DNA of 19,727 nt, taken from NCBI GenBank assembly GCA_963833125.1, contig CAWHWX010000021.1:1-19727 (forward strand). The letters run 5' to 3'. The first letter of the stretch is position 1. Each line of letters begins with the position of its first letter. Both the position numbers and the translations under genes were made by a program. This document shows positions 4,681 to 14,899 of this stretch, in pieces. The notes beneath the pieces are model-generated. The model searched no databases and was not told the DNA's origin. It worked only from the letters and a program-made list of their open reading frames with translations. Source of the DNA: Candidatus Bathyarchaeota archaeon (GTDB lineage: Archaea > Thermoproteota > Bathyarchaeia > 40CM-2-53-6).

Positions 4681-4727
4681 ACGGTGCACCGTCCTGAAAC
4701 GTTCTGACAATACCCTGACGTGTTCAG
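4681..4727. promoter_or_regulatory. Putative operator: 12-bp palindrome plus phased CTGA repeats upstream of the RHH gene
   Basis: ACGGTGCACCGT (4681-4692) is a perfect palindrome. CTGA occurs at 4694, 4704 and 4715, with inverted TCAG at 4724. Function is inferred. Confidence 0.3.
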
Positions 4728-4857
4728 CCAGGATGAGGGAGTCCGAAGTGAATTCAATCCCCCCAGCAACGACCCCTATCAAGCGTCATCCGCCTCGAAC
4801 GCCAGTGGGCATGAAAGTACCCACCCCCGGGGGGTATCCGCATCAAGCGGTGCGGGG

Positions 4858-5090
4858 TGGTGGGGCCGAAGGGACTCTCATGGTTCGGCCGTGAACCATT
4901 TTGAACCCTCGACTTCCGCCATACCGTCATGTCTACGGGTTTCTTCGCTCCTGAAGTTCGTCATTCCGTTCAGGTCCGCAAACCCGTTAAGGTTTGGTCT
5001 TCTGGAGCCCTTGGCGGGTACGTATCCCTGTCGTCATCCCTGGCTAGACACCGCCACTCCTTCCGACGTCATCGGAGTGACTACGGCCCC
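4858..5090 (-). tRNA. trnW: tRNA-Trp(CCA) with five introns (10/11, 28/29, 37/38, 45/46, 59/60), CCA end encoded
   Basis: Exons 5090-5081, 5048-5030, 5010-5002, 4940-4933, 4913-4900 and 4874-4858 join to GGGGCCG TA GTCT AGCCAGGGA TGAC G ACGGG CTCCAGA CCCGT AGGTC GAGGG TTCAAAT CCCTT CGGCCCC A CCA (77 nt, full cloverleaf, anticodon 5005-5003). Every junction sits in a BHB or relaxed BHB motif. Confidence 0.85.
4941..5001 (-). ncRNA. Putative intron-encoded C/D-box guide RNA in the tRNA-Trp 37/38 intron (Cm39, Cm34)
   Basis: Guide ACGGGTTT (4987-4980) then D' CGGA (4978-4975); C' ATGACGA (4964-4958); guide CTTCAGGAGC (4956-4947) then degenerate D AAGA (4945-4942). The N+5 rule lands on C39 and C34. 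Terminal boxes C and D are degenerate. Confidence 0.6.
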
Positions 5091-5210
5091 ACATGGGTTG
5101 AACAGGGTCGGCCCCAGCACCCCACCCTCAGAGAGTTGCTATAACGATTATGGCTGGCTCCAGGTCAACGCGTATAATACTGCGAACAGACGGAATCCTA
5201 TCGAAGGTTC

Positions 5211-6440
5211 TTGCTCAAGATAGGCTTAATCGGTAAGACAAACGCTGGCAAAACCACATTCTTCAACGCCGCAACCCTCCTAACCGCCGAAGTCTCCAAC
5301 TACCCCTTCACCACCAAGAAACCAAACGTAGGCCAAGCCAACGCCAAAACAATTTGCGTATGCAAGGAACTAGGCGTCAAGGATAATCCGCGCAACTCAA
5401 CCTGCATCGACGGAGCCCGTTTCATACCAGTACAACTAATCGACCTCCCAGGCCTAATCAAAGGATCATGGGAGGGTAAAGGCTTGGGAGCGCAGTTCCT
5501 AAGTGTCGCCTCTCAAGCAGATGCTCTCATACACATCGCAGATGCCTCAGGAAGCGTAGATGCTGAGGGAAAACTCACGAAACCCGGCATGGGAAACCCA
5601 GTTGCAGACGTCTACGATATCGAGGAAGAGATTGTGCGATGGTTCTCGAAATCAATCGAGAAAACACTCCAAAAAGTGAAAAAACATTCGAAGAAAGGCT
5701 CGTCAGTATACCACCTATTCGCACAGGATCTAGCGGGCATGAAAATCACCGCAACCCACATCGCACAGGCCCTCAACGCGGCTGACCTCACGGACAAGGA
5801 CTTAGGTAAATGGACGCGGCAGGACATTTGGAATTTCTCAAAGAGGCTGCGTGAAATTTCGAAGCCCACATTGATCGTGGCAAATAAGATGGATATCGCA
5901 CTCGGAGAGAAGAACTATGAGAAGCTGGTCAAAGAGTTTGGGCAAGCGTTCGTAATCGCCGCCTCAAGCGATGCTGAGCTCGCTCTGCGGAGGGCTGAAC
6001 AGACTGGATACGTTGAGTACGTTCCCGGCGAGGAAATTTTCAAGGTCAAGGATAGGAGCAAGCTTACTCCCGAGCAGCGAGACGCACTAACGTACGTTGA
6101 ACAACGTGTTTTCTCAAAATGGATACGGACGGGTGTGCAGTTCGCTCTGAACACCTGCATCTTCAAACTGCTCGGCATGAATGTTGTCTATCCGGTTGAG
6201 GATGCTGACAAGTTCTCGGACAGGAAGGGCAGCGTGCTTCCGGACGTGTTCCTAATTCCATACAACGCCTCTGTCTCGGACCTGGCCGGTCAGATTCATA
6301 GCGAACTAGCTAGGACCATGATCTACGCGGTTGACGCACGAACAAAGATTCGCCTACCAACCGATTACAAACTGAAAGACAGAGACGTCGTCAATATCGT
6401 CTCGGCCGCAAAAGGAAAATCACGAGCTAAGACCCAATAA
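5211..6440 (+). CDS. ychF: YchF/Obg-family translation-associated ATPase/GTPase with C-terminal TGS domain
   Basis: G1 GKTNAGKT, G2 NYPFTT, G3 DLPG, G4 NKMD, and a TGS region with IHSEL...YAVDART. Archaeal-type CxC...NS.C insert. Confidence 0.92.
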   Translation: MLKIGLIGKTNAGKTTFFNAATLLTAEVSNYPFTTKKPNVGQANAKTICVCKELGVKDNPRNSTCIDGARFIPVQLIDLPGLIKGSWEGKGLGAQFLSVASQADALIHIADASGSVDAEGKLTKPGMGNPVADVYDIEEEIVRWFSKSIEKTLQKVKKHSKKGSSVYHLFAQDLAGMKITATHIAQALNAADLTDKDLGKWTRQDIWNFSKRLREISKPTLIVANKMDIALGEKNYEKLVKEFGQAFVIAASSDAELALRRAEQTGYVEYVPGEEIFKVKDRSKLTPEQRDALTYVEQRVFSKWIRTGVQFALNTCIFKLLGMNVVYPVEDADKFSDRKGSVLPDVFLIPYNASVSDLAGQIHSELARTMIYAVDARTKIRLPTDYKLKDRDVVNIVSAAKGKSRAKTQ

Positions 6441-14773: not shown

Positions 14774-14899
14774 TGGCGCCGGGAGAGGGATTCGAACCCC
14801 CGAGGCCCATAAGGGCCACGGGCTTGCATTGAAGTTGACACTCAAGGCCCGCGCCTTTGGACCATTTTCCATGATGTTAATCCACTCGGCCATCCCGGC
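14774..14899 (-). tRNA. trnS: tRNA-Ser(TGA) with two introns (21/22 and 37/38), CCA end encoded
   Basis: Removing 14877-14857 (21 nt; BHB GGAT/GTCC, bulges TA|A and AA|A) and 14840-14825 (16 nt) gives GCCGGGA TG GCC GAGTGGATTAA GGC G CGGGC CTTGAGA GCCCG TGGCCCTTATGGGCCTC GGGGG TTCGAAT CCCTC TCCCGGC G CCA (89 nt). Long variable arm and G73 fit Ser. Confidence 0.9.

Follow-up and report, generated by a model that had tools for sequence, protein, structure and literature searches.

The pre-tRNA-Trp introns of Euryarchaeota carry an antisense element on either side of an internal C'/D' motif, and their guide and splicing conformers are mutually exclusive; the same arrangement is found, and the same exclusivity proposed, for the intron described here. 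According to the accessible sections of four reports, the tRNA-Trp introns of Euryarchaeota harbour a nested box C/D RNA that directs formation of Cm34 and Um39 (PMC4090602, PMC7994747, PMC6313347, PMC11408192). From the TACK lineage, the accessible part of Danan et al. 2012 describes the tRNA-Trp intron of Sulfolobus solfataricus as a very stable circle of 65 nt, without consensus C and D boxes and with two 7-bp complementarities to positions 34 and 39 (PMC3326292). The maximum number of introns per archaeal tRNA gene is given as three in the accessible text of papers from 2014 (PMC4033280) and 2021 (PMC8450103).

We analysed a 19,727-nucleotide stretch (the window) of a contig from a Candidatus Bathyarchaeota archaeon (assembly GCA_963833125.1). 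It holds a tRNA-Trp(CCA) gene with five introns, the third of which, at position 37/38 of the pre-tRNA, probably carries a guide for ribose methylation that is built on one internal kink-turn and is predicted from its sequence to direct formation of Cm34 and Cm39. The boxless TACK-type intron with 34/39 complementarity is already known; what is added here is a conserved internal kink-turn, fixed registers, covariation and breadth of distribution.

A tRNA-Trp gene with five introns

On the minus strand at 5090-4858, the window carries a tRNA-Trp(CCA) gene with an encoded CCA. Read by eye, it starts GGGGCCG, ends CGGCCCCACCA, and has the loop CTCCAGA interrupted after G37. Our manual parse gives six exons (5090-5081, 5048-5030, 5010-5002, 4940-4933, 4913-4900 and 4874-4858) and five introns (5080-5049, 5029-5011, 5001-4941, 4932-4914 and 4899-4875; positions 10/11, 28/29, 37/38, 45/46 and 59/60), and ARAGORN calls a tRNA-Trp(cca) of 77 nt only after the five introns have been removed and the exons joined by script. 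On the window itself, with the intron option on or off, ARAGORN returned no tRNA at 4858-5090, and Rfam gave no match at the gathering score across the whole window and none at E<=10 in 4700-5250. Because the gene is invisible to both ARAGORN and Rfam, genomes of this group will seem to be without tRNA-Trp. The parse is supported by relatives that lack one or more of the other introns, in which the exons are the same; in the regions of 16 of 82 relatives, those with a single intron, ARAGORN directly calls tRNA-Trp(cca) with an anticodon-loop intron. Across the order the gene usually has four to five introns. No relevant paper emerged from a literature search on archaeal tRNA genes with four or five introns and on tRNA introns of Bathyarchaeota, the supplement of an intron-rich Asgard paper (PMC11291895) lying outside it.

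Intron 1 (5049-5080, minus strand, 32 nt, position 10/11) shows by eye the bulge-helix-bulge CCGT[AG/T]CACTCC...GGAGTG GCGG[TG/T], where the slash, here and below, marks a splice junction, and an RNA contig skips 32 nt at this place. Intron 3 (4941-5001, minus strand, 61 nt) lies at position 37/38 between G37 (5002) and A38 (4940) and matches our family model R1, introduced below, with 99.3 bits.

Several further features of the gene and its genome were noted. A second copy on another contig of the same assembly (C19:73419-73659) is 96% identical overall, with an identical intron 3 and differences in the loops of introns 1, 2 and 5; since contamination of the assembly is estimated at about 7%, this copy may represent a second strain and not a duplication. 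With introns allowed, ARAGORN finds only 30 tRNA genes in the whole 3.07-Mb genome, several with unlikely anticodons and none of them tRNA-Trp; non-canonical or multiple introns probably interrupt most of the genome's tRNA genes. Under the same setting it calls a tRNA-Leu(caa) with a 28-nt intron elsewhere in the window (14774-14899, minus strand). A copy of the acceptor-strand sequence GGGGCCG lies in the 5' leader (5109-5115, minus strand), 18 nt upstream of the tRNA-Trp gene, and in the MFE fold of the flanked precursor it takes the 3' acceptor strand as its partner, leader sequence further upstream pairing with the trailer at 4840-4857. Such a leader copy is present in 28 of 65 relatives' regions, as against 3 of 65 with the upstream sequence shuffled, and it may serve as a placeholder helix while the true 5' strand is occupied in the splicing motif of intron 1.

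The hexamer ATGACG occurs four times in 4858-5090 (minus strand). One occurrence is part of box C' of intron 3; another, a conserved copy in the D-arm exon, takes part in the pairing of the intron 2 splicing motif. The copies in the loops of introns 1 and 4 are absent beyond the genus or species and were thus not taken as boxes; nor were CGGA and ATGACG of these two introns accepted as additional boxes, GCGG(A) there pairing with CCGT in the splicing motifs.

Breadth of the intron family

By BLAST, the tRNA-Trp gene was found in 48 of 61 relatives. A covariance model, R1, was built from the anticodon-arm exons and the intron of 22 of 31 loci, nine near-identical rows of the genus being left out. 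In the class sample it has matches in 132 of 151 genomes (88 of the 94 of high quality), nearly always one per genome, and in a phylum-wide sample, at E<=0.1, in 71 of 151, closed single-contig genomes of other classes among them. From 103 loci, 82 were aligned to R1 and 21 dropped as near-identical or as the same place found twice, which left 80 distinct rows. The initial annotation had placed the window in a TACK-like genome, and the lineage agrees: the host belongs to the class Bathyarchaeia of the TACK lineage, and a pattern scan of named species genomes found at least 121 stretches, 72 of the 80 matches listed being from Bathyarchaeia or Bathyarchaeota. Another four of the listed matches (L133, L147, L154 and L163) come from MAGs that bear bacterial labels, the contigs in question being probably archaeal and mis-binned. 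The scan also places a member of the family in a named enrichment genome (L182).

An internal kink-turn with fixed boxes

Box D' (CGGA, 4975-4978, minus strand) and box C' (ATGACGA, 4958-4964, minus strand) of intron 3 flank a CC-GG stem (4974-4973 with 4967-4966) and its variable loop, the whole element between the boxes spanning 4966-4974 on the minus strand. The element matches the internal C'/D' kink-turn of archaeal box C/D guides, its layout being that of a kink-turn whose canonical stem faces the loop. Fixed in the alignment are NNGA followed by CC on the D' side and GG-R-AUGANGA on the C' side; length and sequence both vary freely in the loop that joins the two boxes and in the intron's 5' stretch. 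The GA at positions 3-4 of D' is present in 80/80 relatives, pairing in the canonical stem is complete (100%) and both of its two pairs have changed on both sides, and C' reads AUGANGA in 72/80 and AUGA in 80/80. Together with A 4965, C' supplies the 3-nt bulge A-A-U, and the C1-G6 pair of the kink-turn is kept in 76/80.

Variation at position 2 of D' is in part matched by covariation at position 5 of C'. The pairing is Watson-Crick in 40/80 relatives (U-A in 18, G-C in 13, C-G in 5 and A-U in 4) and G-U in two, so that a standard pair is formed in just 42/80, which counts against the guide reading. The initial annotation had called the two boxes mutually compatible, with C-G replacing U-U; C5 of C' is indeed able to pair with G2 of D', and the replacement is present here, but among the 80 relatives it is one of several states. 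Its alternative D', the CTGA at 4973-4970, exists as sequence but falls within the variable loop of the kink-turn, which differs even between close relatives, and was rejected. A hairpin of CCTGAA and TTCAGG within intron 3 is likewise unconserved and was taken as incidental. A regular-expression scan of the same genome for canonical four-box sRNAs gave no strict and three relaxed matches (control, none) and was uninformative either way, and two further D'-loop-C'-like sites in the genome looked unrelated.

Two predicted guides directed at their own precursor

The 12 nt upstream of D' (4979-4990, minus strand) contain ACGGGTTT (4987-4980), which is perfectly complementary to AA/ACCCGT (4942-4935) across the 3' splice site and sets the fifth base upstream of CGGA (G, 4983) opposite C39 (4939, minus strand). 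In the 12 nt after C' (4946-4957, minus strand), CTTCAGGAGC (4956-4947) pairs at 9 of 10 places with GCTCCAG/AAG (5008-4999), i.e., with G31-G37 and the first three intron bases, the exception being an A.A mismatch at A36; the eighth base of this element (G, 4950), which is also the fifth upstream of AAGA, stands opposite C34 (5005, minus strand). Both elements thus have the antisense form of a box C/D guide, with the target at the fifth pair, and the guide register makes C34 and C39 the predicted sites of 2'-O-methylation. When the intron core was shuffled 20000 times with its dinucleotides preserved, a perfect 8-nt match to the 3' junction appeared 96 times and a 9-of-10 match to the 5' junction 34 times, and no shuffle gave both.

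The initial annotation had proposed alignment with orthologous introns as a check for guide/target covariation. In that comparison both duplexes have compensatory changes, boxes D' and C' and the registers are kept, and the proposed aim of the guides at positions 34 and 39 of their own tRNA-Trp is borne out as far as complementarity, covariation and register can speak for it. The N+5 position of D' falls on position 39 in 68/80 relatives and misses it in 12/80, the latter a point against the guide reading. The eighth base after C' (equivalent to the fifth before the end of the 12-nt spacer) falls on C34 in 68/80, on position 44 in eight and on position 35 in four; we read the position-44 assignments as a mismatch at position 36 that breaks the contiguous run, and those at position 35 as a 1-nt insertion. 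In one family of the class (L065-L068) the position-39 guide looks degenerate or shifted, the C34 guide and the kink-turn being retained. Against the guide reading, the A.A mismatch at A36 leaves the C34 duplex of this genus with a contiguous run of 5 bp around C34; most lineages beyond it have a C34 guide that is complementary throughout (TTCTGGAGC).

Over the 82-row alignment, 90.0% of cells are paired, as against 84.8% when shuffled and 28-53% in slid controls; 10 pairs have changed on both sides, and 0/500 shuffles attain any of five measures. The compensatory changes involve, for the C34 guide, its pairs with intron bases 1-3 and, for the C39 guide, those with the last intron bases and with positions 42-43, places where the exon sequence imposes none. 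As the D'-guide (C39) helix was absent from the search model, its pair counts owe nothing to the way in which the rows were aligned. The C34 helix and the kink-turn were what the alignment was fitted to, which makes their counts lean toward that structure, and the relatives' genomes are not independent samples. Since both duplexes contain intron bases, the substrate must be unspliced pre-tRNA-Trp, either the same molecule or another copy. The two duplexes lie only a few bases apart on the target and are likely to form in turn or on two separate molecules.

The intron ends and the splicing motif

No 5' box C (RUGAUGA, which would form a terminal kink-turn with box D) is present in 5001-4991. 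This 11-nt stretch, from the 5' splice site to the D' guide, is variable in length and sequence among 22 order-level and 82 class- or phylum-level relatives, and the reading of AAGACCA (5001-4995) as box C in the initial annotation is therefore rejected. Without a box C there is one kink-turn here, where described guides have two.

At the other end, AAGA (4942-4945, minus strand) is a D-like NNGA exactly 12 nt after C'. An NNGA occurs at this spacing in 36/80 relatives and at 11-13 nt in 62/80; at the AAGA position relatives carry CTGA, GTGA, CGGA or GGGA. GA is found at -3,-2 of the intron in 75/80, and the commonest 3' hexamer of the intron is GAAGAA (35/80). The same bases overlap the splicing motif, in which GAAG (4946-4943) stands opposite C35-C32 and is followed by the bulge AA/A38. 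The earlier proposal of AAGA as the terminal box D thus keeps its D-like sequence and its spacing, but the splicing motif explains these bases equally well and, as AAGA fits the central helix strand and bulge of that motif, a box D role cannot be asserted.

Parsed by eye, the splicing motif sets C32-C35 opposite GAAG with three of four pairs and a C34.A mismatch, has the bulges AG/A and AA/A, and is flanked on one side by the anticodon stem. Intron base 2 pairs with the base before GAAGAA (i2:-7) in 51/80 relatives, compared with 9-21/80 in slid controls; in this genus, where i2.-7 is A.C, the motif is without its intron-side helix and is a relaxed bulge-helix-bulge, which fits a genome with two splicing endonuclease paralogues. 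A terminal kink-turn formed by G37-A with the D-like GA was considered and is retained only in the more far-reaching reading below, for the i2/i3 pairings that would support it equally fit the intron-side helix of the splicing motif.

Transcripts

Twenty RNA runs from 14 studies contain part of the stretch, none of them half its words, and the intron-containing precursor is found in RNA contigs from three studies. One soil metatranscriptome yielded a contig (word depth 802) in which 32 nt are missing at 5047-5078; with a leeway of up to three places, this joint covers the predicted intron 1. In this contig intron 1 is gone and introns 2 and 3 are kept and, the data being contigs, a DNA variant without intron 1 is possible. 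In run X5, a contig of word depth 1106 (4936-5021, minus strand) carries intron 3 unspliced with both exon flanks and abuts adapter letters at 4936 (G42). These two contigs hint at an abundant, partly processed precursor. On the leader side, the ends of RNA contigs fall within 5100-5108 and mostly at 5106-5108. The contigs of four RNA runs list neither a joint that removes intron 3 nor a circular back-joint, and contigs cannot show absence.

Discussion

The genome encodes fibrillarin, an adjoining Nop5, two L7Ae-family proteins and two splicing endonuclease paralogues. The Nop-domain match beside fibrillarin (C19:218960-219637) has one in-frame TGA and one TAG inside the matched range, which could reflect a frameshift, an assembly error or a split gene. 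In the mechanism that we propose, L7Ae would bind the kink-turn formed by D' (CGGA) and C' (AUGACGA), composed of sheared G.A/A.G pairs, C-G in place of U.U, a G-C pair, the 3-nt AAU bulge and the CC-GG stem, and Nop5-fibrillarin would then dock onto the L7Ae-bound element. The antisense element upstream of D' would pair across the 3' splice junction and set C39 at N+5, and the 12 nt after C' would pair across the 5' splice junction and set C34 at the equivalent position. Both guide duplexes compete with the anticodon stem and the relaxed bulge-helix-bulge; methylation would thus have to precede refolding for splicing, i.e., the precursor would be methylated first and would then refold into the splicing motif.

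A more far-reaching reading, which we regard as rather doubtful, joins three ideas: that one kink-turn suffices if the pre-tRNA replaces the terminal C/D motif, that the intron ends act as a switch, and that this is a common or ancestral TACK form. In the first part, both guides would have their outer ends held in place by the anticodon stem and the intron ends. In the second, A36 G37/A and the GA near the 3' junction may form either the bulge-helix-bulge or a K-turn-like fold in which the anticodon serves as the 3-nt bulge; binding of L7Ae would then shut out splicing and vice versa, and methylation would be forced to come first. In the third, TACK archaea in general would share the one-kink design as their ancestral or common form.

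The same conserved helices and kink-turn may instead be elements of folding or timing, i.e., a non-spliceable conformer or a site for L7Ae as an RNA chaperone, which order the removal of five introns and direct no methylation. Several observations suit such a role: both duplexes cross splice junctions and covary with intron bases, as a structural helix in cis would, and they exclude the bulge-helix-bulge; the helix of ACGGGUUU with AAACCCGU appears in the MFE and centroid folds of the 233-nt precursor; there is no second kink-turn; and an RNA contig has lost intron 1 with introns 2 and 3 still in place. We nevertheless consider it unlikely, as it leaves unexplained the fixed register, with position 39 at the fifth pair from D' and position 34 at the equivalent place in 68/80 relatives each, and the coincidence with the very positions that, in the accessible text of two reports, are methylated via the euryarchaeal intron (PMC4090602, PMC7994747).

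Covariation with intron bases also bears on the possibility that the intron, once excised and perhaps circularised, serves mainly in trans, on rRNA or other tRNAs, with its complementarity to its own exons being secondary. Precedent for this comes from the tRNA-Trp introns of Sulfolobus and Haloferax, given as stable circles in the accessible parts of two papers (PMC3326292, PMC7714728), and from the trans action that, in the passages available, is demonstrated for Haloferax (PMC4090602, PMC11408192). Here, however, covariation ties the guides to the first and last bases of the intron in their own precursor, which points to unspliced pre-tRNA-Trp as the partner, and the circular joint is absent from the RNA contigs listed for four runs (which, as contigs, cannot show absence); we judge action mainly in trans to be improbable. 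That an ordinary tRNA intron simply happens to look like boxes and guides is scarcely credible: the variant boxes (CGGA, AUGACGA and AAGA) and the missing box C are what such an intron might show, but the two complementarities coincide in 0/20000 shuffles, and class-wide conservation with compensatory changes already contradicts a chance resemblance.

If the guide reading is correct, intron-borne self-methylation of tRNA-Trp is not just euryarchaeal and has been kept across Bathyarchaeia and other Thermoproteota in a reduced form with one kink-turn. This would bear on the minimum RNA required by the box C/D enzyme, on the reason for the persistent retention of the tRNA-Trp intron, and on the order of methylation and splicing where a precursor sheds five introns. 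Our literature search found no description of such a kink-turn intron guide, the primary euryarchaeal reports lying outside its reach, and a search on Cm39 in archaea added nothing.

Among known systems, intron 3 shares with the Haloferax volcanii and Pyrococcus (sR50) guide the gene, the 37/38 intron and the predicted targets 34 and 39, as those appear in the accessible text (PMC4090602, PMC7994747, PMC6313347, PMC11408192). It is a 37/38 intron of tRNA-Trp(CCA) with two guides predicted to address its own positions 34 and 39, and it differs from that type in that the full set of C, D', C' and D is not present: a terminal box C is missing, AAGA is an ambiguous D-like sequence, and D' and C' are the clear boxes. 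Position 39 is C here and U in the euryarchaeal type, and the intron measures 61 nt here, compared with 103-105 nt for Haloferax in the parts of two papers that were accessible (PMC3326292, PMC7714728). Searched against the present genome, the curated model RF01133 gave just a 12.5-bit match, elsewhere than in intron 3. With no Rfam model matching, we infer homology to the euryarchaeal introns solely from position and function-like anatomy and, given the missing box C and the lack of a curated-model match, intron 3 is not a plain member of the pre-tRNA-Trp guides.

Free-standing archaeal box C/D sRNAs share with intron 3 the kink-turn of RUGAUGA-like and CUGA-like boxes, the 12-nt spacer after C' and the N+5 rule, and the genes for L7Ae, Nop5 and fibrillarin are present here too. 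They differ in having two kink-turns and not one, and in ends held by a terminal C/D stem, a role that would fall here to the anticodon stem and the splicing motif; from the 5' splice site to D' there are 23 nt, with no box to measure from. Like the multiple-intron tRNA genes of Thermoproteales, the gene has non-canonical bulge-helix-bulge introns at 28/29, 45/46 and 59/60, and the pair of endonuclease paralogues in its genome is what the two-subunit enzyme type leads one to expect. The count of five introns in this gene compares with the maximum of three given in the accessible parts of the literature (PMC4033280, PMC8450103).

Within TACK hosts there is also a likeness to the Sulfolobus solfataricus intron, which, in the accessible text, has a similar length and is of the boxless type with 34/39 complementarity (PMC3326292). 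There, a circle has been demonstrated and a conserved internal kink-turn goes undescribed in that same text (PMC3326292), whereas the present intron is known from sequence and its kink-turn is conserved. As R1 matches closed genomes in other classes of the phylum, the Sulfolobus intron family and the one described here are probably one and the same.
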